Shown here piece after piece: positions 1-31,612 of a stretch of 35,664 nucleotides of DNA; position 1 is the stretch's first letter, and each line of letters begins with the position of its first letter. Both the position numbers and the translations under genes were made by a program. The notes below the pieces were generated by a model, which saw only the letters and a program-made list of their open reading frames with translations, had not been told where the DNA came from and did not search any database. This stretch comes from Folioceros fuciformis (taxonomy: Eukaryota): positions 108,447 to 144,110 of the forward strand of contig JBNGIO010005642.1 of the NCBI GenBank assembly GCA_049999805.1, in the 5' to 3' direction.

Positions 1-1972
1 ATGCTGATTCTGACTATAGGCCTACTGTGCCGATAAGATTTCCAGTTTCAACACACTCTGATGAGGAAACCAAGATTGTGAGCCTTGGTTCTTTTGCTAT
101 TCCTTGTACCCCTCTGTGGTATAAGTGCCCTTACACCCATCTGAAGATGATGTGAGTGAGGATAGAGCACTGCCGCGAGTATCAGTGCCATGTGGTTAGC
201 TTTTACAGTAAGTGTTCCCTGTCTACTTTTATGTCAGCATCCCCATTGCTTTCTTCTCATAGTTCTCTAACAAGCTCCCACTTGCCTTGCAAGATCTGAA
301 CTAAGGCTGGAGGAAGAGCACAGCCTTGAGACTGAGGAGAGGATCTCCTACATGGAGCGTAGGAAGAGAAACTCTCCAAGATCGGATGAGAGCTTCACCA
401 CTCCTTCCGAACATGATCCTGATTCCTCTGAGCCTGATTACTTTGGCAGTCGTGCAAGTGTGGCTATAAATAGTGTGGAAGAAAACAGCGTAGACTGGGG
501 ATATGATTGGTAGTTTGGGTCACTAAACTGCAGGACTGAGGAAGTCATTCGGCTTCCCCATTTCTAAACATTTCATGTGCCTCTCGTGCAGCTCCCTACC
601 TAGGGCTTTTGTCATAATATCTGCTGGATTTTCTGCTGTTGGCACATACTCAAGTATAACCTGTCCACTCTTAATCAAGTCTCTGATGAAATGATACTCC
701 ACCTCAACGTGTTTTGTCCGTGAGTGATGCACAGGGTTTTGTGCAAGGTTTATAGAACCCTGACTGTCTGTTTTGATCACTGTGCAGGTGGGGAGAGGTA
801 GTCTGAGTTCACTGAAAAGCAGCTTGCACCAAGCAATTTCTTTAGAAGCGGCTGTGAGGACACGGTTCTCGGCTTCTGTGCTTGAAAGAGCAGCCGTTGG
901 TTGCTTCTTGCTGGACCAACAGATTGGTCCCCAAGCAAACATGACGATATATCAAGAGACAGATCTTCTACTGTCTATGTCACCAGCGTAGTCTGAATCA
1001 GTATATACATCTAGTTCAAGGGAGGCATCAGGTTTGTATTTGTAAACGATTCCATACTGTGCTGTCCCCTTTAAGTATCGAAATACCCTCTTAACACAAG
1101 TCCAGTGCTCCTGTGCAGGGTTTTCCAAGTATTGTGAGAGCACACTTGTGGAATATGCCACTTCAGGACGAGTAGTGTTGCTGCATATATGAGCTTTCCT
1201 ACTGCCTTGCGGTAAGGGATAGGAAGCATTTTGTCCTTTTCAGCTTGCGTTTGTGGGCTCATGGATTTGCTGAGCTTAAGTCCACTTGGTGGAGGTGTGA
1301 CTACAGGCTTTGCATCCTTGAGTCCAAGTTGGTCTACGCTATCAAGAAGGTATCTTGGTTGAGTGAGAGTTAAAACTCTTTTCTTTCAATCTCTCTGAAT
1401 ATGAATGCCAAGGCAGCTTTGTAAAGCTCCTAAGTTTGACATCTCGAACTTCTTGGATAGGAGGCCATTAATTTTTGTGATAAAGGAGGGACTGTTACAT
1501 GCGAGTATCAAGTCGTCCACATACACAGCAAGATAACATACAGTGTCTCCAGCCTTGTAGACATATAGGCTACCGTCTGAAACACATTTGATGAAGCCTA
1601 AAGCTCGCAGTTCCTCATCTAAAACTGCATTCCATTCAAGAGCTGACTGTTTTAAACCATACAGGGTCTTGATTAGGCGAAGAACATGGTCCTCTTTTCC
1701 CTTTACTACGTAGCCCATTGGTTGCTGCATATAGATTTCAGTATCCAGCTTGCCATGTAAGAAGGCTGTTTTGACGTCAAACATTTCCAACTCATAGTCA
1801 TGGTGTGCTGCTACTGCGCAGAGAACACGAAACGTGGCTAGTTTCACCACAGGAGCATAAGTTTCCAGATAATCCAGACCTGGTACTTGGGAGAAGCCAC
1901 GAGCAACGAGTCTGGCTTTGTACCTGTCAAAGGTACCATCTGCTTTAACCTTGAGTTTAAATACCCATTTAC

Positions 1973-2071
1973 NNNNNNNNNNNNNNNNNNNNNNNNNNNN
2001 NNNNNNNNNNNNNNNNNNNNNNNNNNNNNNNNNNNNNNNNNNNNNNNNNNNNNNNNNNNNNNNNNNNNNNN
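1973..2071. other. Assembly gap (~99 N) inside the copia RT
   Basis: Run of N characters. Confidence 1.
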
Positions 2072-5000
2072 NTCAGACTGAACGGCCTTTTTCCACTCTG
2101 CAGCATCTGGCCTACTCATAGCTTCTTCATAGGTGCGAGGCTCTGTAGGGTCCAAACTCATAGCATTAGCACGTGCTGAACTTGACCTGAAATCATGTGA
2201 TTGATAGTAATCAGGTGCACGTCTTTCTCTTGCAGGGTATCGACGTTCAGGTGGGGGTTCAGGATGTGGTAGTTGTTCAACTGCATCAGCGTCATCATCA
2301 CTCTCCAGAACAACGGCTACATCGTCTGCAACGTCATCATCATCTGGATCTGGTATGTTTGGTTGTAGCTCAACAGCAATGGGAGGTTGCTGCTGCTGCT
2401 CATCAAGGTCAACAAAGGCATCGTCCTCTGCTGGGTCAACTGGATTAACTTGATTATCATGCTCATCCCCCCATGCAGGAGCAATCTCCGCACGTGTTGA
2501 GTCATCAAAGAAAGTGATATTGGGGAGAACAGACAGATCATCACTATCATCTGGAGGTGTTCCCACTGGCGTCCAAACACGTCCTTCGTCAAAGGTAACG
2601 CTTCGTGCATTTATCACCTTGTTCTGAGGGACATCATACAGTTTATAAGCTTTTATGCCCTCAGTGTAGCCTATCATAAGGAGTTTTCTGGCTTTTGCAG
2701 ATAGCTTCTTACGCTTCTCCTTCGGGATGAAAGCATAAGCAATACAACCAAAGGTTCGAAGATGAAGGATAGACGATTTCCTGCCAAAGAAAGCCTCATA
2801 TGGCGTCTGACCTACAACTGCAGTGGTAGGTAATCTATTTCGTAAATACACAGCTGTCATTAGGGCCTCAGCCCAATAGGGCAATGGTAAGGTAGTCTGA
2901 TGCAGCAAGGAGGAAACCATCTCCTGCAAAGTCAAATTCAGGTGCTCTGCAACGCCATTTTGCTGTGGTGTATACACGACGGTGAGTTGGCGCCCAATAC
3001 CCTCCTTTGCACAATATGTTTGAAATTCGTTAGATGTGAATTCTCCTCAGTTATCTGAGCGGAGGGTCTTGAGCTGTTGTCCTGTCCATCTCTCAACAAA
3101 TTTTAAATAAGTTTTGAATTGAGAGAAGGCTTCACTTTTGGCCTTCAAGATATAAGCCATGACAAACCTTGTCTTGTCATCAGTGAAGGTTAGGAAATAC
3201 TTGCCACCACCTATGGAAGGCTGTGATAGTGGCCCACAAATATCAGTGTGGACTAGCTCGAGGACATCAGAGGCTCTGTGTGGGGTCCTGTTTTTGAAGG
3301 CTGCTTGGTGACGCTTAGATAACACACAAGCTTCACACAGAGGTAAGATAGGAAGAGTGCCAATCTTTCCATCATAGTATAGGTCACTGGTAGCCAGTTT
3401 TTGCAGCTTAGCACCATGTGGATGACCTAACCTATTGTGCCATAATATGGCTTTGTCTGTTTGATGTAAAGGTGAGAGGTCACCTTGTGACGTGAAGTGG
3501 GACTGGACAGGGATACTGTGCAAGTGAAGTCGGAATAGATCATGGTCAGAAGATCCATAAGCTAAGACCTTACGATGATCAAATGCATCAAGGATCTGGC
3601 ACTCTGTGGGGGTAAACAGAATGTGACTGTTGTTGTCTATGTTCAGTTGCCTGACAGAAATGAGGTTCCTAGTCATTCCAGGCACATAGTAAACATTGGT
3701 AAGGGACAGTTTTAGCCCTGAAGGCACAGGAAGGAACATTGTGCCCTTTCCTGGAGATACCAATGCCCTGTCATCACCTAAATAGACAAACTGATCCTTT
3801 ACTTGTCTGTAGGTGGAGAAGGCACTTCTATCAAAGCAAAGGTGCGCTGTTGCACCTGTGTCTAAGTACCACTCTTGAAATGGTCTAGACTCTGCTATGG
3901 CAGATAAGCATGTGGGAAAGACTAGAGGTTGAGCAAACTTCCTTACCCCTACTGTCAGGGCGGAAGGAGAGGATTGCTTCTTTACTACGACGTGTGTTTC
4001 AGCATTCGCATTGCCCTCCTTGCGAGGTATGCCAGCTTGCTTCTTACGACATTCGTTTTCCAATGGCCGGGAATTTTGCACCAGTTGCATTTCCCGGTCT
4101 TCTTGGGTTTCTTCTGTGAGGAAGCTCCCTGTGAGATCCTTGCAATAGGTGTAGTATTTTTGCCTCTAGGGTATGGTTTGTTTCCTCTGCCCTTGTTTGA
4201 GGTGTAGAGTGCTTGCTGTTTCCCATGCTTAGGTCCACCTCTCGTGGCTTCTTCTTGAAGAAGTGCTCCCACTAACTCAGAAAAGGTCATGGGAGGTAGC
4301 TTGATCCTGGCTGCAGATGCCAGTTTCTGAGCTTGTGCCTATGAGGTGTTATAAGAAGTCACAAAATTTGACCAGGAGGCAGGTAATGAAAGCATTAAAT
4401 AGAGTGCTAACATATCTTCCTTGATGGCTTCGTGTGTTGTTCCTTCCAACTAAGAAACAAGATGTCTGAAAGTAGCAATGTGCTTTTCTACTGAGTCACC
4501 ATCTCGCATCTTGCAGAGTTGAAGGTTTTTGAGGGCTGCCATCTGACTGGTTGAATTTCTACCAGAGTAAAGCTCACGAAGTCTAGACCAAATATCTGAT
4601 GCAGATACGGCTCCTAAAGTGTGCCTCAACATTTCAGAGGTTAGGCCACACCGTATCATGTACATGGCTGCGTCATTTCTGACTGTCCATGCCTTGACAG
4701 TTGCTGCATCATCTGTATCTAACTCATCATTTCCGGTTGTTACATCCCAGAGTCCTCTATTCTGAAGAGCACCCTGCATCCTCATTACCCACATATCGTA
4801 ATTCTCCCTTCCGAACCTGTCCTTTTCCTTAAACATGTCACTGCCTATGTTATAGGACAGTTTGGGTGTGGTATCTTCGTCACCCATGTTTGTAGGATTT
4901 AATAGACACTAATCTGTGTAGTTGTAACCTGTGTTGTGCAGGTTAATCACAACAGAGTTCTAGGAACAAATGTTAGGGGACAAATGATACCTGGTTCATG

Positions 5001-5164
5001 AAGACATCAGCAATCACAGAACATAAATAGGGTTTGAAACTCTGCACTGTGCTGCTGTTAAACTAATTTCTAGTTTTAAATGCCTCATCTTCCACTTATT
5101 GTTTGTGTGGGTGGAGTATGATGGGCAACAATTGGGTGCATCAAACCTGTGACTTCTGTTCGTC

Positions 5165-5719
5165 TTATTTGTATGCCTGTGTAAGGCTCCAGAATGAGGA
5201 ATTAGCAAGCAAATGTGATCTCGACAAAGTCAACAATTTGAAATTCAGGTGAGAGATTTGTTCTTTCAAACTTTGAATACCAACACTAGACTCAATAAGG
5301 CGCCGAATGACACTGCCATGATTTCTTTTTATGTGGTTTTGATATGATTCAAGCCTGGTTAGTAACTGAAAAATCCCTGTGTCTGATGCAGCATGTGTTG
5401 TGAGAAGTCCCCTATGATTAGGGTTACCACCAGAAGATCGCTGCAATCGCACCACTTGTGGAATCGATTGTCTGGGAAAGTAAGGAGCAAAAGTCAAATA
5501 TCTCTGACCAGGGTAGAGAGTCTCCACTATTGTATTGAAGGCCTCCTGTAGGTTTCTGCAGAGTTCAGGCAGATCTTGATTGCGCAACAGCCATGTCACA
5601 ATGTGTTGATGGATGTACTCCACAAGATTGTGCCTGTTTTGATTTCCATTTTGCTCCCTCTTGTTGTTGTTTGCACGCTCAACCGGAACGCAGCAGACAT
5701 TGTTTCCATTGGTAGCCAT
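5165..5719 (-). CDS. Uninterrupted 184-aa ORF of unknown function between PBS and gag of the copia element
   Basis: ATG-started open frame, same strand as gag-pol, no retroelement motif recognised; C-terminal part is heptad-like. Confidence 0.5.
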   Translation of the reverse strand: MATNGNNVCCVPVERANNNKREQNGNQNRHNLVEYIHQHIVTWLLRNQDLPELCRNLQEAFNTIVETLYPGQRYLTFAPYFPRQSIPQVVRLQRSSGGNPNHRGLLTTHAASDTGIFQLLTRLESYQNHIKRNHGSVIRRLIESSVGIQSLKEQISHLNFKLLTLSRSHLLANSSFWSLTQAYK

Positions 5720-6298: not shown

Positions 6299-6322
6299 TC
6301 AATACTCCTTCACCCAATACCT

Positions 6323-6460
6323 TGGTGGTTAATACGTCTCGCCAGTTTTATAAGCATCTGATATGTCTATACACACAATGCTTGTACCAACCCAATATCT
6401 CGGTGGTGAAAACGTCTTGCCAGTTTTATAAGCATTTGATCTGTCTATACACAATGCTTG
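6323..6460. repeat. Imperfect tandem duplication, ~78-bp period
   Basis: ggtggt..aa.acgtct.gccagttttataagcat.tgat.tgtctatacaca(ca)atgcttg occurs twice. Confidence 0.85.
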
Positions 6461-11600: not shown

Positions 11601-13426
11601 TACTTTCCGCCAGAACACCCTCACTAACGCTCGTAGAAATGTTTCTCAACACTATGATTTGGTCTGCCACACTTCCAGATCCTGTGCTCTCCTTCTTCCC
11701 TGTCGTCCACTCTCCGTTTGATGTTCTACGGTCTTCGTATCACGACTCCGGCTGATGTGGAAACTGATGGTGCACGTGCAGAGCAATGATATGTTCGCTC
11801 TCTTTTTAGACGAGACGATGACGTACTCATGTGCAATATTCAAGGTACCTTCAGCCTTCCCCCAGGTGTGCATTAGGCGTCCTGGATCTCCGCGTGAAGA
11901 GAAACTGAGAACAAGTATTTTTCTGCTTTTAATAATGTCACAGGGCCCCGAGGAATCTTTGGTGGATGCACAGAGGCGGAAACTGAATCACCTGGTCAAC
12001 AAGGTTGCTTCTGGTTGCAATTTGCCTGGCATCTTATGAGTGTTACCACCATGAGTTCCACTCACTTTCTACAACTTTCCTTGTCCGCTTGGCAGGCCAG
12101 GATAAAAAACACACATGAGGTGTTAGAAATCGGGTTCGGTTGGGGCAGTTTGGCGTTAGCTATTGTTCAGCAGACCGGGTGCAAGTACACAGGCATCACC
12201 CTCTCCGAAGAACAGTTGCAATACGCCCGAAGCCTTGTAAAGCAAGCCCAGCTGGAGGTATTTTTTTTTCGAACCACGGAACCTGCTCAATATGTTCGAT
12301 GTGCTGAAAACCTAACCTCTGATGCACCTGACAGCTCGTGCGACAATCTGATAGTGCTAAACCTCACTGTTGACAGGATAAAATCACCCTGAAGCTCTGT
12401 GACTACCGTTCTTTGCGTGGATATCACAAGTATGATCGGATTGTAGCATGGTGAGTGCAATTCGCTAGAAGTTTCTGTGTTTCAAATTCTTGTTTCAATG
12501 CAAGGAAGCGCGATGTTAACCTGTCCAGTGCCATGTCTTTTCCCAGCGAGATGTTAGAAGCAGTTGGTCACGAATACTACAAGGAGTTCTTCAGTCGGTG
12601 CGATCACCTTCTGGCCAAAGACGGGCTCCTAGTTGTACAGGTTGTTCCCTCTTCCAACTGCTGTTGCAAACGACACTTTCCGGTGTCTTCATACTAGCGT
12701 CCCTGCCATTCCGACAGGTTATCTCTATACCAGAAGAGAGGTACGAAACCTACCGTAGAAGCTCAGACTTCATCAAAGAGTACATCTTCCCTGGTGGATG
12801 CACTCCCTCGCTGAGCACTCTCACAGCAGCCATGGCGAGCGGATCAACTTTCTGGTACGACCTCACCCCTTTTCTCCATTCCTCTGTAGACTGGTAGATC
12901 TAATTCTCTTTCTTACTCCTCCAAAAAGCGGGGTCTATGCGGAGAACCAGGCACTCACTGTTGGTTGCTCTCACAGCGTGGAGCACATGGAGAACATTGG
13001 AGTACATTATAAGCAAACTTTGCACCGCTGGCGTGACAAGTTCTTGGCTAACGGCAGGTATGTAAAAGGCCCACAGTGGCAACACCACTTGCTATGCACT
13101 GACTTTCATGGCGACTTTGTGCTGAACCAGCTGGCTCATGCCATGTGGTGTGACAGTGAAATCCGGAAACTTGGTTTCAGCGAGAAATTCATCCGAATGT
13201 GGCAATACTATTTTGACTACTGTGCTGCAGGCTTCGAGACTTGCACTCTGGCCGATCTCCAGGTATTTCACATTTCCATTTTGCTGGTTATCGGGCTTGA
13301 TGAATTCCTGCTGCTCAATGTTGCTGTAAGTCAGTGTCTGTGATCTGTGATGAACAGATTGTCTTCTCTCGACCTGGAAATGTAGCGGTTCTAGGAGACC
13401 CCTCCGTCTCCTTCCCCAATGCATGA
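8664..13426 (+). CDS. Cyclopropane-fatty-acyl-phospholipid synthase, plant long form (N-terminal FAD-dependent amine-oxidase-like domain + SAM methyltransferase), 24 exons, ~864 aa
   Basis: Motifs MRVAVVGAGVAGLAAA, DVGFMVFNRVTYPNM, GAYQGYGFHEDG, HYDLSN, MTYSCA, VLEIGFGWG, EMLEAVGHE, FIKEYIFPGG, YFDYCAAGF. GT-AG exons: 8664-8837, 8924-9138, 9245-9353, 9460-9561, 9651-9710, 9823-9901, 9981-10128, 10213-10336, 10429-10609, 10696-10724, 10794-10942, 11018-11120, 11239-11334, 11413-11468, 11538-11661, 11782-11844, 11944-12003, 12096-12257, 12377-12450, 12547-12640, 12718-12854, 12977-13057, 13157-13262, 13358-13426. They sum to 2595 nt, in frame. Confidence 0.95.
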
Positions 13427-14075
13427 CTATCGGCGATAGTCCACATTGTGCATAACTTCAATCCATTCGCCTTTATCTTTTACTTCCTGCATTAGATGCC
13501 TTAATTTGGTATGGTTATCCATACAAGACATTGTACGATCTGCAGGTGATGAATTTTTTTCTATTTTTATAATAAATAATTGTCTACACGACAGCTATGG
13601 AGTCAATCTCCCATATACCTGCTCACTCTCTTAAGTATCTATTAATAATGTTGGTGAAAATAAAAAATCTCATTTTTAATATTATTGAATGCAAACAATG
13701 TTTGCATCTTAAGATACTGTTGTTAAGATACTGTTGCTTAGCCTCTTCGTGTGCAAGCCTTACTCACCATGTGTATGTTTCTCACAAAGTTGGACGGTAA
13801 GTATGCCTTCATTAACCCGTTTGGCAAATAAAGAAGGATTGTCACTAGCATTTATTTATCTGTAAAAACATATGCAAAATTATTTGGTAGGAATATATGC
13901 AAAATCATTGTCAAAAATTTCAATAGCCCTCTTTCCATGAGAACCATCTTCAACTTCTATAGTATGAAGTTCTTGTAAAATGTCTCTGCTCAACTTATCT
14001 CCACACTATTTGACATCACCTCTACTTCTCCTCAATTACTATTCAAGATTAATTCTCCACTCTCATGCACTTGCA

Positions 14076-14137
14076 AAGACACTCTCACAAGCATAAGGCT
14101 TAAGAAAAGACACTCTCACAAGCATAAGGCTTAAGAA
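14076..14137. repeat. Perfect 31-bp tandem duplication
   Basis: aagacactctcacaagcataaggcttaagaa x2. Confidence 0.95.
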
Positions 14138-14221
14138 CATGGCAATTGCACACAAGGTGCTATAATCACAACGCTGAGAATTACAATCATTGGCTACTCT
14201 TAATTGTTGAAAGTTTCTAGT

Positions 14222-14311
14222 TTATGACACTCTTCAACTCAATACGAAGGTTGGTCTTTTTAGACATTATGACATTCTTCAACTCGATAAGAGGGTTGGT
14301 CTTTTTAGACA
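14222..14311. repeat. 45-bp tandem duplication
   Basis: ttatgaca(c/t)tcttcaactc..ggttggtctttttagaca x2. Confidence 0.9.
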
Positions 14312-14629
14312 CCCCGATAATTCACTTTAGGACATCCCTCATGACTCTAAAGCAGCTCCTAATCAAAACTTTTAAAAGATAGTTTCAGCAAAACCCGCCT
14401 ACTCCGAGCAAGTGTCAAGAGCCAAAGGTCTAGTCCAAAAATTTTACCGTCTAGCCTACCTTTCGTCTACCCGGGTGTTGATGGATCTCGCGCTGGCCCT
14501 GGTCATTTTTGTGGACAAGTCAACAGCCCCTTGATGCAGCTTGAGCTTGAACTGGACCTCGTCAAGTTAGATGGGCAACTGGAAAAGGAAAATTGACTAC
14601 CAACCCTGGCTATCACTGGCATTGCTAGC

Positions 14630-15400
14630 ATTCATTGAAACACACAGGTGGCAGATCCCAGGGGTTACATCCTCGAGTGTCGCCACATCCTTTACCTTCG
14701 TGGCCGAGTTATCAAACAGCTGCCGTACTATCTTCAAGCTCGCCACGCTTTGCAGACATATCCACCGGGCAGTTCACAACAAAATCCCGTGGACTATGTG
14801 ACCACCACCATCTTGCCCACTGTCAATGTGTATGTATGTAGTCGCCTGTCACGACTTCATTTTCCACCTCCAGGAGCAGAGCATCGTGGAAGGCGTCATC
14901 CAGCGTATGGCCTCCTCCTCTAGCCTATCTGCCGTGCATCATGAGGAAGAGTTGCTTCCCAAAACCGTATCCGACGCGTACCCAAGTTCGACTTGACCTC
15001 GTTCTTCGCTCTACACGGATCCTTAGCTGTACTCTGTTTTAGCGGTGTGCAAAGAAGAGCTTGACAAATGGCAGTGTTTCTCTGCACGAGGGCTTCCAAT
15101 TTTTAGGGCTCAAACGGCCACTACTCGCTCACTCTTCCAGCCGAAACCCTAAACGATTCAGATCCTTCAACCCTACATATACCAGGTTCAGGCTTATCAC
15201 GAGAGCTGGACTCGGAAGGAGAGGCACAATGGGCATCTGCATATCCAAGGAAACGAGTTGATCAATCAACCCAAGCTAGTCCAAACATTTTCCTCAGGCA
15301 CAGCACTTAACTACCCTAGACCACCCCGGGAGTGAGGCGAACAGGAGCTAGAATTCCAGACTTTTGCCCCACATCACGGTATTGTCCTGCAATAGTTGTA
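14630..15400 (-). pseudogene. Decayed copy of the N-terminal half (PDF motif + first PPR motifs) of the adjacent PPR gene
   Basis: Collinear matches: atatccaaggaaacgag 15241 vs 17552; ggaaggagagg 15214 vs 17524; atccgacgc(g/a)tacccaagtt 14969 vs 17260; tttgca(g/t)acat(a/g)tccacc(g/a)ggcagtt 14749 vs 16919. No long ORF. Confidence 0.85.
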
Positions 15401-15549
15401 TGTCTGCCTTACATCTTCGAGCACTCGTCCCTGTATGATCACACCACCCGTAGGACAGTCTCGACGGGTTTTCCTTGAAAAGAAAATATCGTTTCTAAGT
15501 TTTGGTGTCCAGAAGGAGGAGAGAATCGTGCCATTGTGAGGACTGGGAT

Positions 15550-18060
15550 TCACGATCGGCCACTACAACTGCAAAAACCAGCCGCGAATCGATGCACACG
15601 GTACCCATCCCTGACAATTATGTCTCTCTGCTCAAGCCTTGACATGATCTCCGTGGAACTGTGGCAGTCGCTGCACATGCGCAGATTCTTCGTTATCACC
15701 AGAGGTGTCCCACTAGGAGTGTTCAAGAGACCAAACGCCAAAGCTAGCTTCTCGGCATGGCCACAAAGCACATCTTCCTTTTCCTTTTCACACACTGGCT
15801 TCAACACCAATTTTGTGTGAGGCACGTGGCCCCCTTCCTGCTTCAAACGTGCATTCGTGCTGTCTACTTTGAGGGCAATGTCCTCCCTTGTTTCTCCTAC
15901 CGCAAAGCTATGTACCACACATTGCACCTCAACAGTCGCCACTGCAGGTTTCTTATTAGCTCCTGCTACTCTCCTCTGTGTCTCAATCCTGTCTACATCG
16001 CTCCACCTGCCTGCATCTGCAAAGACATTGGCCATAAGCACATACGCGGGTGCATGCTGGGAGTCCAGCCTTACAATGCTCTCAAAACACCACACCGCCC
16101 TCTCTATATCCCCATGACATTTGCTAGCGTTCAGCAAAGACATCAACCCCACAACGTCACTTTCGCCATCACATGATAATAGCATCTCCTCTGCCTCATC
16201 TAGATGGCCCGCACGCCCAAGGAGGTCAATCATACAATTGTGATGCTCAACAGTAGGATTGATGCCATGTTGTTCAGCCATGGAATGAAAGTACTTGCGA
16301 CCCTCATGGACCAGGCCCTCATGACTGCATGCTACCAAAAGGCAAGTAAAAGTTGTATCATTAGGCTGAATACCGGCAGCTAGCATCTCCTCAAAACAAG
16401 CTAGTGCCTTGTGACCTTCATCACAAGTACCGTATCCAGAAATCAGGGCGGTCCATGTCACCACGTCCTTTGTAGCCATGCAGTCAAACACCTGGCGAGC
16501 ATCTTCCAGTTCACCACATTTCGCATACATGTCCACCAGGCAGTTGCCCACCAGAACGTTCTCTAGGAGCCCTCTTCCTACAATATGTGAGTGCAGTTGC
16601 CTACCTCTCTGTAACGCACCAGTGCCTGCACAGGCCTTCAGAAGGCAAGCAAAAGTGATATGATTAGGCGAACTCAGGCCCTCCTGCTCCATTTGTTCAT
16701 ACACAACTAACGCCTCTTGGCCGAGCCCATGTTTTGCATACCCTGCAATCAGCGCCGTCCATGTCACAACATTTTTTGTGCGCATGCTGTCAAAAATCTG
16801 ACGAGCATGTTCCAGTTCTCCATATTTTGCATATCCAGATATCAGGGCATTCCATGTCCCCACATCCTTTGTGGCCATGCTATCAAAAACCTGGAGTGCC
16901 TCTTTCAGTTCACCACATTTTGCATACATGTCCACCAGGCAGTTTCCAACAAACACGTCAGGAGGAATGCCACTGTGTAATGCATCACAGTGCACTTTCC
17001 TACCAGATTCCAAGTCGGCCGAAAACGCACAAGCTTGAAGGGCAGCGACAAAGACGTGAGCATCCGCCTTCACTCCTGAGCTACGCATCTCATGGTACAG
17101 TTGCACGGCCTCCTTAGGTTTCCCATGCTTAGCATATGCAGAGATTATGGAAAACCACATGAAAACATCTGGTTTGCGCACCCTGGTGAACACATCCATG
17201 GCCTCCTGTAGACAACCTCGGCATGCGTACATGCGCAAAATATGGTTTCCCAAGTATGCATCCGACGCATACCCAAGTTTGCTTACGAGGTCATGAACTC
17301 GTCGCCCCACAACCAGATCCTTCTTAGCTATACACAGTTTTAGCACAGCGTAAAACAAAGATTGAGAAATAGAAGAGCCCGTCAACGTCAGAGATTCCAG
17401 GGCTCCAAAGGCCTCATACAGCTTCCCCTGCTGACATAACGTGCTCACAGTTGCAGCCGTAACGATGCCCATTTGGGATCCTGCACAGCTGTTAGACTCA
17501 GCCTTCTCCAGAGAGGTGCAGCCGGAAGGAGAGGCCCCATGACCCATCGCTATATCCAAGGAAACGAGCTGCTCATCAACCCAAGCTGGCTTGAACATGT
17601 TCTTTAACCACAGCACCTCGCCGGACCCCTTGCGCCGGAAGTGAGGGGGACGAAGCCCCCTCTTATGTCGTCTGTTGTCCCACCACATGGTAGGATCCAG
17701 AAAAAATTGCTGCCACAAGTGCTCCTGGCGACGACCATCGCTGGATAGCCCATCCTCACCCACATATTTCCTGGGTGATGGAAGTGCAGGGCTCCTTACA
17801 TTGCTGCTCCTGAAGGCTTGGCTGGTTGCCGGGGATTGATTCCCTGAGGGCAAGTAAGTGGCAACTCCTTGCAGATCCCTCGGCGTACACCAATTTGTTG
17901 GGTCCAAAACAGTCCCCGCCGCCGCATCGCCCCTTAGCCTGGAGCGAGCTGAATTGGGACGGCGTAGGCCAACTGTGACTGCGAACGACCTGCGGGATGA
18001 GAACACAAGTGGATGTCTCACACAATTAAGCAGAAGACATAGCTTCCTTTGCTTATTCAT
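15550..18060 (-). CDS. Intronless PLS-class pentatricopeptide repeat protein with E1-E2 and DYW:KP deaminase-like domain; N-terminal organellar-targeting-like peptide and OSB-type PDF motif (~836 aa from ATG 18060)
   Basis: ~13 PPR motifs (P-L-S-P-L-S-SS-P-L-S-P2-L2-S2), E1/E2, KKPAVATVEV box, HAEKLA...CSDCH zinc site, terminal CSCSGRS. The frame is also open upstream to 18210. Confidence 0.93.
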   Translation of the reverse strand: MNKQRKLCLLLNCVRHPLVFSSRRSFAVTVGLRRPNSARSRLRGDAAAGTVLDPTNWCTPRDLQGVATYLPSGNQSPATSQAFRSSNVRSPALPSPRKYVGEDGLSSDGRRQEHLWQQFFLDPTMWWDNRRHKRGLRPPHFRRKGSGEVLWLKNMFKPAWVDEQLVSLDIAMGHGASPSGCTSLEKAESNSCAGSQMGIVTAATVSTLCQQGKLYEAFGALESLTLTGSSISQSLFYAVLKLCIAKKDLVVGRRVHDLVSKLGYASDAYLGNHILRMYACRGCLQEAMDVFTRVRKPDVFMWFSIISAYAKHGKPKEAVQLYHEMRSSGVKADAHVFVAALQACAFSADLESGRKVHCDALHSGIPPDVFVGNCLVDMYAKCGELKEALQVFDSMATKDVGTWNALISGYAKYGELEHARQIFDSMRTKNVVTWTALIAGYAKHGLGQEALVVYEQMEQEGLSSPNHITFACLLKACAGTGALQRGRQLHSHIVGRGLLENVLVGNCLVDMYAKCGELEDARQVFDCMATKDVVTWTALISGYGTCDEGHKALACFEEMLAAGIQPNDTTFTCLLVACSHEGLVHEGRKYFHSMAEQHGINPTVEHHNCMIDLLGRAGHLDEAEEMLLSCDGESDVVGLMSLLNASKCHGDIERAVWCFESIVRLDSQHAPAYVLMANVFADAGRWSDVDRIETQRRVAGANKKPAVATVEVQCVVHSFAVGETREDIALKVDSTNARLKQEGGHVPHTKLVLKPVCEKEKEDVLCGHAEKLALAFGLLNTPSGTPLVITKNLRMCSDCHSSTEIMSRLEQRDIIVRDGYRVHRFAAGFCSCSGRS

Positions 18061-18064
18061 GCCA

Positions 18065-18280
18065 ATGGTCGCCACTGTAGGTTTCTTGTTAGCTCCTGCT
18101 GCTCTTCTCCATGCTTCAGCCCAGTGTATCGGTTCACCTGCCTGCATTTGCGGGGAAAATAACCCTGAGCACATACATGTGTATGCAGGCGTAACCAGGG
18201 GTCCACCCAAACAGTGTTATTCCCGTTTGTATCGTGGTGACTACCTTTGCAAGCATTCAGCAGGCGAAGTCATCAGCATG
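18065..18280 (-). pseudogene. Decayed copy of the E1-E2-KP box segment of the PPR gene, immediately upstream of its ATG
   Basis: gtcgccactg(t/c)aggtttctt(g/a)ttagctcctgct 18068 vs 15935; cacctgcctgcat and agcacatac shared; tttgc(a/t)agc(a/g)ttcagca 18246 vs 16120. Translates RRAAGANKKPTVATI vs RRVAGANKKPAVATV. Confidence 0.88.
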
Positions 18281-19799
18281 AATGGATGGAAACGACTCGA
18301 AGCCTGATGTGGGAATGGATTACACGGATATAACAAACAACACATCTGTTGGTTACACCCCATGTTCCGAATCTTGCATCGTCGGAAACGACTTAAATTG
18401 CAAGGTTTGGCTGCCTCGAAACATGATGTGGGACTGGAAATTCCAGTGTCACTTTGGTCGAGTCCCGAGCTCGGTCCTGCAAGTTTAAAACAAAATTGGG
18501 AACCGAAGGCTAGTGAAAAGTCCAGTCCCGAGCTTCGATCCCCATTTTCTTCGGCGACCGACGGTTCCAAAAAAGGCCCGTCCTCCTGTCACATGGAATG
18601 GCATTGTCAAAGCTGGGGAAGAGCAGCCTCCACAGCAGAATATACCAGACTTTTTTTATTTTTAAATAATTTACTTAGTATTTGTTACGTATAAGGACCA
18701 AGAGTGGAAAAAGGCGACGTCCCTTACGCCTGGGTTGGTGCCAACCCAAGTGTCGCTGTCATTAGCCTTGTACATACAAGCTGCAGCTTCTTCTCTTGGG
18801 AATTTTCTGCATTTCTTGTTATCATAGTTAAAATCTCACTGATTGTCAACTAGCTATTGGTCAATAAGACGGATCACATAGCGGACGAAGTACTCATGCT
18901 GCTATATGGATTAGCCTAGGGATCCCTCATGGATTGGGGCAAGGTAGTAGCCCATAGCATCTAGTCTCTGAGGTTAGAAGACTAAGATAGAGGGTTAGAA
19001 GGCTAAGACAGGAAATGCCACCCACTTCAGGCTTGCCTCCTTTCCTCTTCCATATTTGGGGTCACTGCAAGGCCCTCACAGACTTAGAAAGACAATCCCT
19101 AGTCTGACTCATGCTAACCTCTCGTCTAACTGCTCTAGTTCCCGCACCCAGGAAGAAGGCCCTGGCACCCGCAACTCATCCAGTCACCCTACCCTCAACA
19201 CCCGTGTCGCTGCCAGTCTTCGATAGTACACTGGAAGATATGACTGGTAGATACCCATACGGAGCCTCTCCAATGACTCTAGCATCAGTGCCTAGTTCCC
19301 CTGCCAATCCTCCTTCAGCCAAGAAGCGGCAAGTCACTACTCTAGCGAAGGAGAAGCCAGCTTCTAAACGACAGAGTGCTCGGGCTCTAGTCCAGTCCCC
19401 GAAGTGGATTATGCTCCTGAGTGCCCTCCCACCCACCAGCCCATAGCCCGAAGATTTATAAGTACCCGAACGTAGACCATAGGTTGCTCCCATATCAAGG
19501 GAGCAAGCAGATCCTACTGGCAACATAGTTGGACTACAATGAGAAGCACCAAATTGGTCTGTTTGGGTAAAACGGCCTCCATCTCTGCACGGCAGGTAAA
19601 AAGGGAGGGGGGCCTCACTCCCCTAGCCCACCTCCGGCCAAAATAGTGCGACCTCCCGCACTACGACCTACTGAAGAGGAACAAGAGCAGCGGAGAGCCC
19701 TACCCTAGTCCATTGTTTTGGAATATTTGATTGAAGGGGGCATCACCGATCCGGAGGCTATGAGATAGGCCATATGGACGTCATTCAGGAGGCCGCATT

Positions 19800-19980
19800 C
19801 ACTACTACAAAACGGGTGCTTTTGTGACACTCGAGATATGACAAGCACAGCCCTCGAGGTTTCATGTCATACATTGAACACGCCGTCTAATAAGTATGAC
19901 ATTAGGCGGACGGGTTTGCCTCCTGCTCTGGACCGTTCCATTGGTATGTCATTTGCGTGTCACAATGAACTTTGGACACA
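19800..19980 (+). mobile_element. CACTA (En/Spm) transposon terminus with subterminal repeats
   Basis: CACTACTACAAAA at 19800, followed by several direct/inverted TGACA/TGTCA-core motifs (tgtgacac, tatgaca, tgtcata, tatgacatt, tgtcaca). Matching other end not found. Confidence 0.75.
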
Positions 19981-20569
19981 ACTCGGGAGAGTTGGACATG
20001 TCCAACTCAATGCTGGTGTTTTTATTGCGCTATGTATATGTCCCGCACGCCCTATCCTGTACAAGATAGAGAGCGCAGGACGCAACTAGGGAGAGTCAGA
20101 TGGAATAGGGAGCTTTTAGACACCCATCCTTGAGAGAGTACACTAGCCATCAATTGGGGAGAGAGTGCAGTGGCATTCCCCTCAGAAGAGAGTGCAGTCA
20201 AACGGGCTTGGGTAGAGAAAGCAATGCTGATGGTCACAAAGTGCCCGGCTTTGCATGCCGTTGATATCTAGCCGTCCAAAAGGACATGGCTGTGGAGTGA
20301 CCGCTTGGACCAAAGGATCACCAAGAGGTTCATATTAACCCTTTACTCGTTATAGTCCTAAGATTCATTCCTAAGGGAGTAATCTCGTGTAAAGGTAGTC
20401 AACCTAAGCTATCTTAACGTGCTAATCTGATTCTACCTATTAGCCCCTAGTAGCTACAATAATTATGTCTAACTCCATAACTTTATTCCTAATGCATGCA
20501 TAGGCTATCTCAGCAACTGAAAAAAAGTAACTCTAGTCTCATAGCTCCAACTCTTCAACTTCAACTCAG

Positions 20570-20745
20570 CATCCAGAAATTTGCAACACAACCCTCCAGC
20601 TCTTGGAATTGGCACCACAACTGTCCAGCTCTCCAGCTCCTGAGGTTGGCAACGCACCTCTCCAGCTCCTAAAATTGGCAACACAACAGCCTTCCCCACC
20701 AGCAGACTTAAGGCAGAGAGGTGTGAAGATTAAGGCAGAGAGGTG
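20570..20745. repeat. Short degenerate tandem repeats
   Basis: Recurrent ctccagctc...ttggca(a/c)c units, and ttaaggcagagaggtg x2. Confidence 0.65.
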
Positions 20746-21993
20746 AAGTCTTCACACCGGATAGCCCCCTTGACTCAAGGCCCTCAAAACCTTCACCTTG
20801 GAAACCTCACTCTAAGACATGAAGGCACCTTTTAGCCAACAAACAAGAAGGATCAGCAACTACACATCTGGCTACACAGATCTTGGCAGCCTAGGGATTC
20901 ACCACAGTTACAAGGAGATAAGCCCAAGGTGTACTCTCACACCAAATCAGCGTCCTAATCCAGTAGCCGACACACAAGGGACAAGAGAAATTGCACCAAA
21001 GACTGTCCCCCCTAAATGGCAAGGCTAGCCCCCTATACTATCTTGGCCAAGAACCCCCTATCACTACCCACCAAGGTCAGCATCAATTCACACGCTCAAA
21101 AATCTTTTACACACCCACCAAGAACCTAACCCTAATGCCGGCCTATGAGAAACTGCCAGCTGGCCTTTTGGAACTCATTACTAGTTCCCCCCTTCACCAA
21201 TCTGCAGCCGCTTCCCTTGCAATTACTCCACCTTCTCCCTCAAATCATCCTACACCTTCTTCAAGGCCTCCAGCCCCCATCCTATTGGCTACACTGGCCA
21301 AGAACATCCGCCCTGCAGTTGTAAAGATGATTGAGCTGCTGGACGCAACCCATCAACTTCATGTCCTTGCTTTCTAACTTGTGCGTGAAGCTACTTCCCC
21401 ATTTCCAATGTTGCGGATAGATTTCCAGATCCTTGCTACGTCAGCTTCCAGTACTTGGTTGTGGCAGCTGGTTCATGGCCGTAGAACCACACTACCAGGT
21501 CAGAGTCTAATGAAACATCCTCCTCAGCAGTCCCCCGCCCTACCTGAAACGAGTTGATGACGCAAGCCCTACAACACTCAGGACACCCTGGGACCAATCC
21601 TCTCTAGCACTGCCGCAGACGTCCTCACACAATATGTGCAGGAGCCCTTAATTCTTTGATAGCTATCACCGACCTTTCTCATGTTCAGATTTGGACATCT
21701 TCGCAGGTTCCCGTCTACCTCCAAAACCTCTCCACAAGCTCTTCCTTCAAGCGTCCCTTCCGCCTTTCAAGATCCGCAGTGGGCAGACCTCGGATCCCCG
21801 CTGTCTCCACCACAAGAGGTAGCAGCTGCAGGGCCATGGCCACGGACTCACCCTCCCCACATGGGGTAGCATCTCTTCGATGTACCCAGCCTGCCCCGTA
21901 CCGCGTTCACAGGCCAAAGCCTCCACCAAGCTAAGAACGAGGCAAGACAAAATCTTCCCCCGCTCCCGCCATGCCTGCATTGATATTAACCGC

Positions 21994-22668
21994 CTACCCT
22001 TCATTGTCCGCCGCAATTGATGCTATGACTAGAATATTTCCGTCCCGCAAGATGGCCTGCAAGCCTCCAAAGTTGACGTGGGTAATCTCCTCATGCATAT
22101 CTACTCCAGAAGTGCTGCAAACCCGCTCTTTGATATGAGAGATCAGAGACAACATATCCGCTCTTTGGAGTCCCCTAGGTTCACCAAAAAGTTGGCATGC
22201 AACTCTGAGACCGCAGTGTCGCCAACTCGCACACCCTTCAGCCTAGCTTGCATTCGTTGGAAAGATGACGAACGATAAGCATACTGAAGCTGGCCCTTTT
22301 CTTTGGACGGTACACGAACCTCCCCGTCTCCAGTCACCACTTCTACAGCTGTGGGGACATCTGATGTTTGCTGCCCGTCCGCCCCATTGTTCATATACAC
22401 GTCTCCCCCCACAGTACCAGGGATCCCACACGCAAACTCCAACCCGGAAAACCCTTCCTTGGCGCAGCGGATCCTTAGCAGATTGAAAGCGTGGCCGATA
22501 CCTGCTCGGTACACCCTTGCCCTGCAGCCCTAGATGAAGTTGATCCAGTTGAGCAGCACTCAACACAAGCAGCGGAGATTTGGGGAGCAATAGCTCCGCG
22601 AAGTAGCTCGCAGGTCCCCCGATCCCCCACGTACTCACTTCGCTGAGCAGTCTGCCCCTGCATCCACC
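21994..22668 (-). pseudogene. murB: UDP-N-acetylenolpyruvoylglucosamine reductase (plant/plastid-type MurB) pseudogene with internal deletions, stops and frameshifts
   Basis: Across frames: GRLLSEVSTWGIGGPASYF, VLLNWINFI*, VYRAGIG, GFSGLEFACGIPGTVGGDVYMNNGADGQ, YAYRSSSFQ, LKGVRVGDTAVSELHANFLVN, DMLSLISHIKERV...GVDMHEEI. Confidence 0.9.
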
Positions 22669-22839
22669 GTCTAGGAGACCACATCCCGACCCACCTGTGA
22701 CCAGCCTGCCGTCCTGTTATAGCCTGATGTTTGTCATAAAGCTACTCCACCTAATTGTCCGCCATGGCTATGCTTCGCGTTCAACCAGCTCAAGTCAAGT
22801 GCTTGCGCGCACAAGCTGGGTCACAACCAGGCCTAGCCC

Positions 22840-23470
22840 GCCGCCGCCTGTCTAGATCCGCCACCTATAGCTGCCTGCCTGCCTAACTAGAGCTGACTGG
22901 CCTGCTTGGATCCGGTCCACACAGCTTGCCACTGATCCGCCTCGATCTGCTTCAGATCCGTCTCGGCCTACCAGAGCCCGGAGCTGTCCAAAGCTGTGAT
23001 CTAGCTGCTGTTCAGCCGCGAACCAGCCAATTGGCTTGTCAGCCCACCTGAACGCCAGCGTGCCTGCCTGCTTGGATGTCTGCCACCCGCCTGCCCGCAA
23101 ACCGATCCGGCCAGTCTGCCTACCTGCCGATCCGGCCAGAACCAGCCAGACTGCTACTGATCCGTCCTGCCCCAGATTCACCACAGCCTACCATAGCCTG
23201 GGGAGCCTTGCCCCCCACTTGGCCTACCAGCTGCGATCCAGCAGTAAGCGTGTTCTGCATCCATTCATGCATGCGCTCCAAGCTCCAACATTTTGCCTAA
23301 ATGTCCACCAGGCAGCGGCCAACAAAAAAGTTAGCTTGAAGGCTGGCTGGCTGATTCGCCCTGGCTTGCCTGGATGTCTGCTTGGATCCACCACCGCCCG
23401 CCTTCTAGCCGACATCCCGATCAGCCAGCCGCCTGGATCCGGTCCACCAGGACCCTGCCAGGGATTTGTG
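22840..23470. repeat. GC-rich low-complexity region with dispersed short repeats
   Basis: Recurrent gcctgcctg, (gct/gcc)tggatccggtccac, tggatgtctgc, tgatccg motifs. Confidence 0.6.
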
Positions 23471-23509
23471 GACTTTGCTTAGGATCGGAGACATTTTGGA
23501 ATCAGGCTC

Positions 23510-23782
23510 TTGAGAAACAAGGGTGAACCAGAGCTCTCGTGGGTGTTGCATGTGTGGAGAGTCTTGTATGTGTGTGAGAGGGTGGCTAACTCTTTGAGAA
23601 ACAAGGGTGAACCAGAGCTCTCGTGGGTGTTGCATGTGTGGAGATGATTCGTGGCTAATTCACGGGGTCTTGTTTCCATGTATTACCATTTGCATGTGTG
23701 GAGAGTCTTGTATTGTGTGAGAGTGTGGCTAGTCTTGTATGCGTGTGAGAGTGTGGCTAATTCACGGGGTCTTGTTTCCCAT
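23510..23782. repeat. Mosaic tandem repeat block (~84-bp period plus shuffled subunits)
   Basis: tgagaaacaagggtgaaccagagctctcgtgggtgttgcatgtgtggaga x2; gtggctaattcacggggtcttgtttcc x2; gtcttgta..gtgtgagag x3. Confidence 0.9.
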
Positions 23783-23919
23783 GTAGAGCATTCAATAACA
23801 CTAAATTTGTAAGTCTAGAAGCATAAACCCGTTGTAGAAACTCGCACCGCCGGAAAAATATTAGTTAGGGTTCTGGGTGGGTCCCACCACGATCTTGGAA
23901 ACAACTATCGATCGCGGAA

Positions 23920-26900
23920 ACAGTGAGCAAATCGTGGCTGGCCTTCCCGGCGCATCATCAGCCGCAATCTTTGAAGTTCAGCTGGACTAACCAACAACAG
24001 CAGAATTTGGGAACTCGCAGATTAGATAGGTTCTATGTCCCATCTGGTTGGTTGCCTCTGGTGCAGTCATATAATATTCTCGCTGGTACAATCCTGTCGG
24101 ACCAATTAGCTGCCCTTGCCCAAACCCTTGCCCCTGCCTCGGGGCGCCAGAGGAGGCATATGCAAAAATTTCGGATGAACACATCCTTACTTAAGGAAAA
24201 AGGTGTGTTCGAGGAGGTCAAAAGCATTTGGTAGGGAACAGAGCAAGGGGAAGAACTTGTTGTTTCCAAATTGATTTGTGCTAACAACATCGCGATTAGG
24301 TACTTGAGGAAACGGGGGGTCCAATGGGCGAAGGAACTGTGCCAGCAAGAATGTTTTTGGAGAGAGGAACTAAGCTGGCTGCAAAGGAGTTGAGAGGAAC
24401 GGGACTTCACAATCGAAGAAGAAGCCTTGGAAAACAGAGGTGTAATGCACCTTGGCCAAATTGGAACAAGACAAAGCCAGAGGTTGGTTTAAACGGGCGA
24501 AGGTTAAGTGGGTGAGGGAAGGGGACGGTCCGTCTAAATTCCTTTTCGCTAAGGTCACCTGGCTACTAATCGGCATAGGTCGCACATTCCTGCTCTTCCG
24601 GACGCATAAGGAGTGGTACAGGAGTCTCTTGAAGGTTTGAAAAAGCTCATCACCCTCTTCTTTGTGGGAATTTTTTCCAACGTTCGGAAGGTGGTTGGGT
24701 GGGAGCAGCTCTGGTCATCTTCCTACGGGACACTCTCGGCTAAAGTGTCTGAAGCCTAGCGCAAGGCACTGGATAAGCTGATTACTGCAGATTAAGTACT
24801 CCAAGCTCTGAAGGGGTTGTCGAGGAATAAATCCGCGGGTCATGACGGTATCCCACCCAAGTTTCTGCTATGGGGGTGGGAGTTTATGGAGCCTTTATTC
24901 ATGGAGGCGGTGGACATGATTTGAGAGGAAGGTAGCATGGGGAATTGGTTTAACATGGGGGTCATCGCATTGCTCCCTAAGCAGGACGCCAGTCTATCAA
25001 TCTCCAATTGGCGCCCAATCACATTGCTTACAACTACGTACAAGATGATAGCTAAGGTTTTGGCCAACCGCATCAAGCCTTTTCTGGATGATTGGATTGA
25101 GAAAGGGCAGCGGGGGTTCATCCAAAACAGATGCATCTTGGACAACCTTCTGCTCTTGCGGGAAGCTAAGTATAATACAAAAGTTCAGAAGAAAGCTGTC
25201 GTTTTCATTTCCCTGGGTTTTTACAAGGCTTATGGTTCCATTGAGTGGCACTTCTTGTGGAGGTGCTTGCGTAGCTTTGGGTCCGGGAATAACTTCTGTA
25301 GGTGGATCGCCATTTTGTGTGAAGATGAAGGGGCAAAGGTGGCTGCCAATGGATCCTTTACGGAGCGCTTTGGCATTCATTGGTCGGTACGTCTGGGTTG
25401 CCCCCTTGCTCCATTCTTATTTATTATTGTTATTGACTTCTTCCTCCGAGCAGTCAAGCAAGACCAGGCAATCAAGGGTATTCGCAACCCAAACGGATCG
25501 CAGTCAAGGGTCTCTGTGTTTGCAGACGATACCCTTTTTTTTTCGTCGATAGAGGAGGCCTCTTTGAATGCTCGGCTCCCGCAGGTCAAGGTCTTTAGGG
25601 AGTTGTCGGGTTGCAAGGTTAATTGGAATAAGACTCACATGATGTGTTTACACATGCAAGGGGAGCTACCTCCATGCATTCAGCACATTCGGCGAGTGAC
25701 GCAAGGGTCCTCTCACAAATATCTGGGACTTCCCTTCCATGAGGGAAATGAGAACGGTGAGATAGGTAAGTATGTGTGCCTTAGATTTATTCGTAAAGCG
25801 GCGAGTTTGCAGCTGTTGGAGCTTAACCTTGCAGGAAGGCTGGTGGTGATTAACCATAGCCTCTCTATGGTATTATTTGTTCTTATGGGCCCCTTCCAAG
25901 ACAGAGGTGAAGAGGTTGCAAAAGGTGTTGACTTCATTCTTGTGGAAACATGCGGGGGATAGCTCAGCTGTGTGCTCTAAGGTGGCTTGGCAACACATTA
26001 TTCAGGCAAGTAGTTTAGGGGGGCTTGGGGTGGTTGATCCAGTTGCCAAGATGGAAGTCTTGCATGCTCACTGGGTTGTCTGGGCGGCGAATCCTACCTA
26101 CTACCCCTGGAAGAACCTGCTAACACAATATTTGGAGTGCACTCAAGCTGACCCTAGAGGAAGGAGGTCTATTGACAACATCCTTGCTGATAAACCACTT
26201 CTTAATATGGCAGAGTACTCCCCACTCTTCAAGTCAATCTGGAGTAGCTACTTAGAGGTTAAGTGGTGCATTATCCCTAGTAACCCTTTGCACGTTGATG
26301 ATGTTCTGGGTGTTCCTTTGCAAGGTTTCTCGATGTTGTGGGCTCAAGAATTTAGGGCAAGGGTGTATCGGTCACAAATCTTCGGATTGACGTGTCGGAA
26401 AGGAGTTATCCAGCTCGGTCACTTATGGAACAGATCAGAGGCCCGTTGGAAGGAGGTGGAGGAAGTCAAGGGTGAATTGGTTTAGTGGCTAGACATGTTA
26501 GGCACATTTTTTTCATGGTTGCAAGAGGGGTTAGAGGATAAGGTACAACAGGTTTTAAGGCAACAACCTACCCGGGGCGCCGAGGGGTGGTATGTGTACT
26601 CCATGGATAGTAAGGGAGTCGATTCTGAGGAGGATGAACAGGAGTAAGACCTTGAATTGGATAGAGTTGTTTGGCTTACAGGCACGGCTGATAAAGAAGA
26701 ACTGCGGTCATTCAAGGTCCTCTTGCTTGTAGGGCTTTTGGAAGATCAGGGCAGGGAGGACGGTGCTATTCGAAGAGGGGAACTAAGGGCCATCACAATC
26801 CTCTCTAAGTCTGTTCGCGCAGGGCGGTGGTGCACCCAAGTCGAACGTTCTAGTGGGCCACAAACTTCGGACAAGCTAGTTGTACGATGTTGGTTTCGGC

Positions 26901-31330: not shown

Positions 31331-31349
31331 AGTATTGCAGAAGGTTATT

Positions 31350-31612
31350 GGGTGATGGAGCGTAGAGCGGTGGTGATGGTGCTTAGGGCGATGGTGAGCA
31401 TAAGGCGGTGGTGATGGTGCATAGGGCGATGGTGAGCATAGGGCGGTGGTGATGGTGCGTACAACGATGGTGAGCGTAGGGCAGTGGTGATGGTGCGTAG
31501 GGCGATGATGAGCATAGGGCAATGGTGATGGTGCGTACGGCGATGGTGAGCGTAGGGCAGTGGTGATGGAGAGTAGGGCAGTGGTGATGAACGTGGAGCG
31601 TAGAGTGGTGGT
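31350..31612. repeat. 38-bp minisatellite (~6 copies)
   Basis: Unit tagggcgatggtgagc(a/g)tagggc(g/a)gtggtgatggtgcg at 31384, 31422, 31460, 31498, 31536. Confidence 0.92.

Follow-up and report, generated by a model that had tools for sequence, protein, structure and literature searches.

Decayed pieces on either side of an intact DYW:KP-type PPR gene in Folioceros fuciformis are probably the remains of old local duplications

The window analysed here is a stretch of 35,664 nucleotides from Folioceros fuciformis (NCBI GenBank assembly GCA_049999805.1, contig JBNGIO010005642.1, positions 108,447 to 144,110 of the forward strand), and all positions given below are counted from its first letter. 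On its minus strand, at 15550..18060, it carries an intact, intronless open reading frame (ORF) (coding sequence, CDS, 18060→15550, 2511 nt, 836 aa) whose deduced product is a pentatricopeptide repeat (PPR) protein of the DYW:KP type. This resident gene is flanked directly upstream by a decayed piece of its C-terminal part and shortly downstream by a decayed piece of its N-terminal part. The two relics are homologous to the resident gene and co-oriented with it, their junctions are abrupt and unlike each other, their divergences are similar, and their decay is biased towards deletion. The reading that we favour, with a probability of roughly 0.7, is that they are old local, possibly partial, duplications of the resident gene or of a close sister that were subsequently eroded by deletions, leaving one surviving gene. 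The pieces are neighbouring homologous copies from a single family, all pointing the same way, as is characteristic of tandem or proximal duplicates, and the locus looks like a further example of something already known, i.e. the ordinary wreckage of local duplicates, and not like a new mode of copying.

The upstream relic (18062..18276, minus strand, 215 nt) is a decayed piece consisting of the E1 and E2 motifs and the KP box (nhmmer E 9e-19, 74% identity), and its equivalent in the resident gene lies at 15929..16146 (minus strand, residues ~639-710). In a gapped alignment of 18275→18063 with 16145→15930, 148 of 199 columns were identical. Self-comparison of 14000-19000 by blastn paired 15930-16045 with 18063-18176 (76% over 116 nt, E 7e-20, offset 2133) and, weakly, 16117-16136 with 18243-18262 (offset 2126), giving an offset of 2130-2133 nt on this side, below the length of the CDS. 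The relic ends 2 nt short of the resident ATG, confirming the original prediction that an E1-E2-KP piece stands directly 5' of the start, and shares the reading frame of the resident ORF, with stop codons farther 5'. Its last ~41 nt are 85% identical to the source segment, after which homology stops abruptly at 18063|18062, indicating a rearrangement breakpoint and not a gradual fading. When 120 database homologs were searched over their first 250 residues, no KP-like relic was found (best match E 0.018, PPR-like), which is a weak test because predicted proteins begin at an ATG.

The downstream relic (14652..15408, minus strand) comprises a decayed PDF motif, the linker that follows it, and approximately the first five or six PPR motifs (residues 116-408). 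It begins 141-152 nt past the stop codon, where such a piece had been predicted at about 150 nt, and was recovered with nhmmer at E 2e-36 and 2e-10 in the window with the gene masked and with tblastn at 35% identity over 117 aa. A gapped alignment of 15408→14652 with 17714→16836 of the resident gene contained 518 identical columns out of 722 (72%). In the self-comparison of 14000-19000, segment 15188-15306 matched 17498-17616 (76%, 120 nt, E 2e-19, offset 2310), 14914-15074 matched 17202-17375 (67%, offset 2288), and 14695-14783 matched 16866-16953 (75%, offset 2171), the last of these also in a second register inside an internal repeat (offset 1772). The relic carries many frameshifts and stops as well as net deletions, measuring 757 nt versus 879 nt in the resident gene; since 157 nt of the latter are without counterpart and only 35 nt are extra, the offset decreases along its length, from 2306 to 2184 nt. 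Between the stop codon and the relic lies a spacer of 141 nt (15409..15549, minus strand). No run of five or more A residues was present in this spacer, in the 173 nt counted from the stop codon or at the 3' ends of the relics, so that the poly(A) signature of a processed retrocopy is absent. Both relics are truncated at their far ends.

All the self-blastn matches were plus/plus, in agreement with the predicted co-orientation of the pieces, and the offsets of ~2126-2311 nt, shorter than the 2511-nt CDS, were reproduced far beyond chance by the same self-comparison. The arithmetic drawn from them, i.e. that full-length copies with intergenic DNA cannot fit into such a period, is correct. The further proposal of a concatemeric or circular intermediate predicts that one junction sequence and one period are repeated, since a single circular or rolling intermediate can yield only these. 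We found that the interval from the relic KP box to the resident PDF motif (354 nt) consists of the ATG plus leader, whereas that from the resident KP box to the relic PDF motif (522 nt) takes in the DYW domain, the stop and the 141-nt spacer. The leader (18062-17715) does not detectably resemble the DYW domain and 3' spacer (15929-15409): a Smith-Waterman alignment of the two intervals yielded nothing beyond a lengthening of the PDF anchor (score 15 versus 11.1±1.4, matched by 9 of 300 shuffles), the semi-global score was 2.0 versus 2.6±1.4 (matched by 235 of 300 shuffles), the best nhmmer match had E 2.1, and translated searches with tblastn in both directions gave nothing below E 2.8. Since the flanking anchors are still 72–76% identical, a homologous interval between them should have been detectable. 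Thus, the DYW domain of one unit does occupy the place of the leader of the next, as predicted, by position but not by sequence, and the derivation of the leader from the DYW domain or 3' flank of an upstream copy was rejected for lack of alignment, nhmmer or tblastn similarity. With unlike junctions and offsets of 2133 versus 2306 nt, the locus does not have the structure of a uniform head-to-tail concatemer, and the proposed intermediate finds no support in it.

Divergence from the resident gene amounts to p 0.256±0.031 (n=199) for the upstream relic and p 0.283±0.017 (n=722) for the downstream relic, corresponding to Kimura two-parameter distances of 0.32 and 0.36, respectively; these values point to a great and similar age for the two relics. 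For their source, the relics were compared with 121 proteins, i.e. the resident protein and 120 listed database homologs, all of which are at most 54% identical to it. The resident protein was the best of the 121 for the downstream relic (38.5 versus 28.1 bits) as well as for the upstream relic (30.0 versus 25.8 bits), and in the variable linker it gave the sole significant match (E 4e-8), with the 120 homologs at E of at least 0.017. The sequence comparison favours derivation of the relics from the resident gene or a very close sister.

A third, smaller scrap of PPR sequence, in the same orientation, is located ~5 kb 5' of the ATG (23286..23343, minus strand; blastn 78.6% over 56 nt, E 2e-8; nhmmer E 1e-4 in the gene-masked window). 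It falls into a decayed PPR-like region, with 11 tblastn matches from database homologs within 23204-23635 (minus strand), to which tandem repeats with a period of 84 nt (23510-23785) are adjoined. Searching the masked window with the gene by nhmmer revealed nothing significant beyond the two relics and this scrap, and a six-frame search with a hidden Markov model (HMM) of 9 close homologs was no more sensitive than tblastn. A lone weak tblastn match was noted at 21301-21480 (E 0.009). No transposable element termini that could account for the gap between the relic at 18.3 kb and the scrap at 23.3 kb were found in 18000-24500.

In the order and number of events that we infer, local duplication through unequal recombination or replication template switching within a repeat-rich gene would have given rise to flanking copies. 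The PPR array of the resident gene (16336-17004, minus strand) contains internal tandem repeats (offsets 93, 303 and 399 nt, 67–85% identity) and is one 31-aa motif longer than that of P0076, the nearest database protein, a sign that it has undergone slippage or unequal exchange. The duplicated segments may have been partial from the start, the downstream copy being 5'-truncated and therefore promoterless and leaderless and the upstream copy 3'-truncated, or whole copies may have been made and later cut back by deletions. By either route, the flanking copies would have died, and deletion-biased decay would then have taken away most of each. The sub-genic offsets would thus result from two different breakpoints and not from concatemeric or circular copying. 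Unequal crossing-over with deletions, which the original prediction had named as an alternative to a circular intermediate, fits the data.

Several points weigh against this reading. That the relics are closest to the resident gene was judged against distant relatives only, the best of which is 54% identical. Two junctions with sub-genic offsets within ~8% of each other are a mild coincidence if they arose by independent events. It is likewise a mild coincidence that the upstream relic ends 2 nt from the ATG and in frame, for which duplication and erosion offer no explanation beyond chance (for the frame, a chance of ~1 in 3). Had the DNA that separated the upstream copy from the ATG been lost through deletions, the promoter of the resident gene would have to lie farther upstream. 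Finally, a single locus fits partial duplication at origin and full duplication followed by deletion alike.

Head-to-tail amplification of a sub-genic unit of ~2.1-2.3 kb, whether from a circle of DNA or cDNA or by a rolling-circle process, with the resident gene later acquiring or keeping its leader, would account for two sub-genic and similar offsets (2133 and 2306 nt) and for the co-orientation of every piece; the equal divergence of the relics is compatible with one event, and ORFs for LINE-type (long interspersed nuclear element) reverse transcriptases are present in the window. We nevertheless regard it as very unlikely, as it predicts identical junctions in place of the 354-nt and 522-nt intervals without similarity, the A runs of a cDNA are missing after the stop and at the 3' ends of the relics, and the predicted upstream positions contain neither further units nor PDF relics (nhmmer found nothing significant between 18.3 and 23.2 kb). 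A more specific form, in which the unit multiplied head to tail had no leader and measured ~2.3 kb, reaching from the PDF motif to ~140 nt beyond the stop, and the resident gene became functional only when a new ATG and leader, in frame with the old KP box, took the place of the DYW domain and 3' flank of the upstream unit, has in our estimate a slimmer chance still.

Two further explanations dispense with a common array of resident copies. The relics might be the remains of different PPR paralogues from an old heterogeneous cluster and not derived from the resident gene. The scrap at 23.3 kb covers only the highly conserved VDMYAKCG-type motif, for which any PLS gene is a possible source, and the comparison set was made up of database homologs, none of them a paralogue from the same genome. 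On the other hand, the downstream relic matches the resident gene through the variable linker, where the best of the 120 homologs reached only E 0.017, and both relics retain 72–76% nucleotide identity to it even though the nearest protein in the database reaches just 54%; a heterogeneous origin therefore seems quite improbable. Alternatively, the resident gene may never have been part of an array, and patches of 215, ~760 and 56 nt may have been copied from it, with template switching, during the synthesis-dependent repair of nearby double-strand breaks. Templated insertions draw on nearby sequence, and the pieces are short, near the gene, co-oriented and abruptly ended, with no other portion of a putative sister copy detectable. 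Such filler is nonetheless an unlikely source: a colinear relic of 757 nt with many small internal deletions is long for filler and resembles a decayed larger copy, and a divergence of ~26–28% implies ample time for full copies to erode. Old local duplication followed by deletion remains the reading that we prefer.

The deduced resident protein contains tandem PPRs (Pfam PPR_2 E 2e-64, PPR E 4e-63, PPR_1 E 4e-51) followed by E1/E2 motifs (PF20431 E_motif, residues 649-711, E 3e-15) and a DYW-type deaminase domain (PF14432 DYW_deaminase, residues 744-834, E 1e-32). DYW:KP and DYW:PG proteins are told apart, according to PMC9478123, by a KP-type box, by HAE instead of HSE in the HxE(x)nCxxC signature and by the last triplet. 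In the resident protein, NKKPAVATVEV (KKPAVA) stands at the position of the PG box, the zinc signature is HAE...CSDCH (CGHAEKLA...CSDCH), and the C-terminus, CSCSGRS, ends in the triplet GRS instead of DYW. Judged by these motifs, it is a PLS-class PPR protein whose leader is followed by a single OSB-type PDF motif, the PPR array, E1/E2 motifs and a DYW:KP domain. The DYW:KP subgroup is given as confined to hornworts, lycophytes and ferns in a survey of 364 genomes (PMC13386178), and U-to-C activity is described for designer DYW:KP proteins in PMC9478123. By family membership the resident gene is a candidate for an organellar U-to-C RNA-editing factor, and it is presumably functional. P0076 shares 54% identity with it across 92% of the query, and the best named matches are proteins of Diphasiastrum, Adiantum and Ceratopteris (30–43% identity).

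The reading frame of the resident gene is open over 15550..18174 on the minus strand, giving 874 aa when counted from the first ATG, and extends to 18216 from stop to stop. A call of 874 aa is possible, as the frame 5' of the likely start (ATG 18060) crosses the relic KP box to the ATG at 18174.

The leader (residues 1-115; 17715..18060, minus strand), a presumed targeting peptide, has no counterpart in either relic. A search with residues 1-200 against 1.84 billion representatives yielded 463 proteins at E ≤ 1e-3; among the best 150 of these, nearly all the best stretches fell within residues ~100-180, i.e. the PDF motif, and none began before query residue 43. A separate homolog search with the same residues returned 1703 candidates, none of them at E <= 1e-3. 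The PDF motif, described in PMC6963530 as a motif for binding single-stranded DNA in organellar proteins resembling single-stranded DNA-binding (SSB) proteins, is located at 17533..17742 (minus strand) in the resident gene. It was detected with a local HMM built from the matches of the leader search (E 2.5e-26) and by blastp against the N-termini of homologs (down to E 8.5e-21), its P-D-F triplet being degenerate (PPHF). When the PDF-motif HMM was run on the window, the resident motif alone was significant. Among the 120 database homologs, 39 contain 1-3 PDF-like stretches, and these include proteins that are not of the KP type. A scan of 8 top matches from the search with residues 1-200 against the representatives showed an SSB OB fold in 3 and identified 2 others as PPR proteins. 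In the open-access literature, a single paper contains both 'PDF motif' and 'pentatricopeptide'.

The remainder of the window is repeat-rich. Pieces of a Copia-type long terminal repeat (LTR) retrotransposon, comprising gag, integrase, an SH3-like domain and RVT_2, occupy 523-5719 (minus strand), and no LTR pair was found in the self-comparison of the window. Two LINE-type (non-LTR) reverse transcriptase ORFs are located at 24925-25962 (RVT_1 E 2e-34) and 33010-33870 (RVT_1 E 7e-07), both on the plus strand. Exon-like ORFs with cyclopropane-fatty-acyl synthase/methyltransferase domains (CMAS E 8e-10 and 2e-07) are present at 11898-13343 (plus strand), ending ~1.3 kb short of the far end of the downstream relic. 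Short tandem arrays with periods of ~75-78 nt (81–88% identity) were found at 31347-31587 and 6312-6460.

The locus documents birth and death at one DYW:KP gene. In PMC13386178, PPR expansion in hornworts and lycophytes is attributed mainly to dispersed duplication by retroposition, and tandem and proximal duplication are handled as separate categories. For Anthoceros angustus, the portion of PMC7027989 dealing with these genes reports PLS-class PPR genes in very large number, along with numerous tandem clusters, without linking PPR expansion to tandem duplication. If the arrangement described here were to prove recurrent, it would suggest that U-to-C editing factors are also copied locally, beside the retroposition route reported for early land plants. 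Should the reading with a leaderless unit be true and recur at DYW:KP loci, it would constitute a distinct way to multiply editing factors and to re-equip them with leaders. The locus also calls for caution in annotation, since the ORF runs 114 nt (38 codons) past the likely start through its own E2/KP relic and the downstream relic could be mis-called as a gene fragment.

Pseudogene fragments occur in the PPR clusters of flowering plants, for example at Rf-like loci. With its co-oriented, adjacent, decayed partial copies carrying frameshifts and stops and showing a deletion bias, the present locus resembles the duplicated (non-processed) pseudogene fragments of tandem clusters, but it differs from the Rf-like clusters, which are P-class, in that the gene concerned is of the DYW:KP type and both junctions have sub-genic offsets. 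The resident protein is similar to the DYW:KP candidate U-to-C factors of hornworts, lycophytes and ferns in its KP-type box, HAE(x)nCxxC signature and non-DYW terminus, while differing from the known DYW:KP proteins in that its closest database protein is only 54% identical. As with retroposed PPR copies, the parent is intronless and retroelements are nearby; unlike those copies, the relics adjoin their parent, are co-oriented with it, lack poly(A) traces and are each truncated at both ends. The head-to-tail order and an apparent period shorter than the gene are shared with rolling-circle or extrachromosomal circular DNA concatemers, from which the locus is set apart by its non-identical junctions and non-uniform period.

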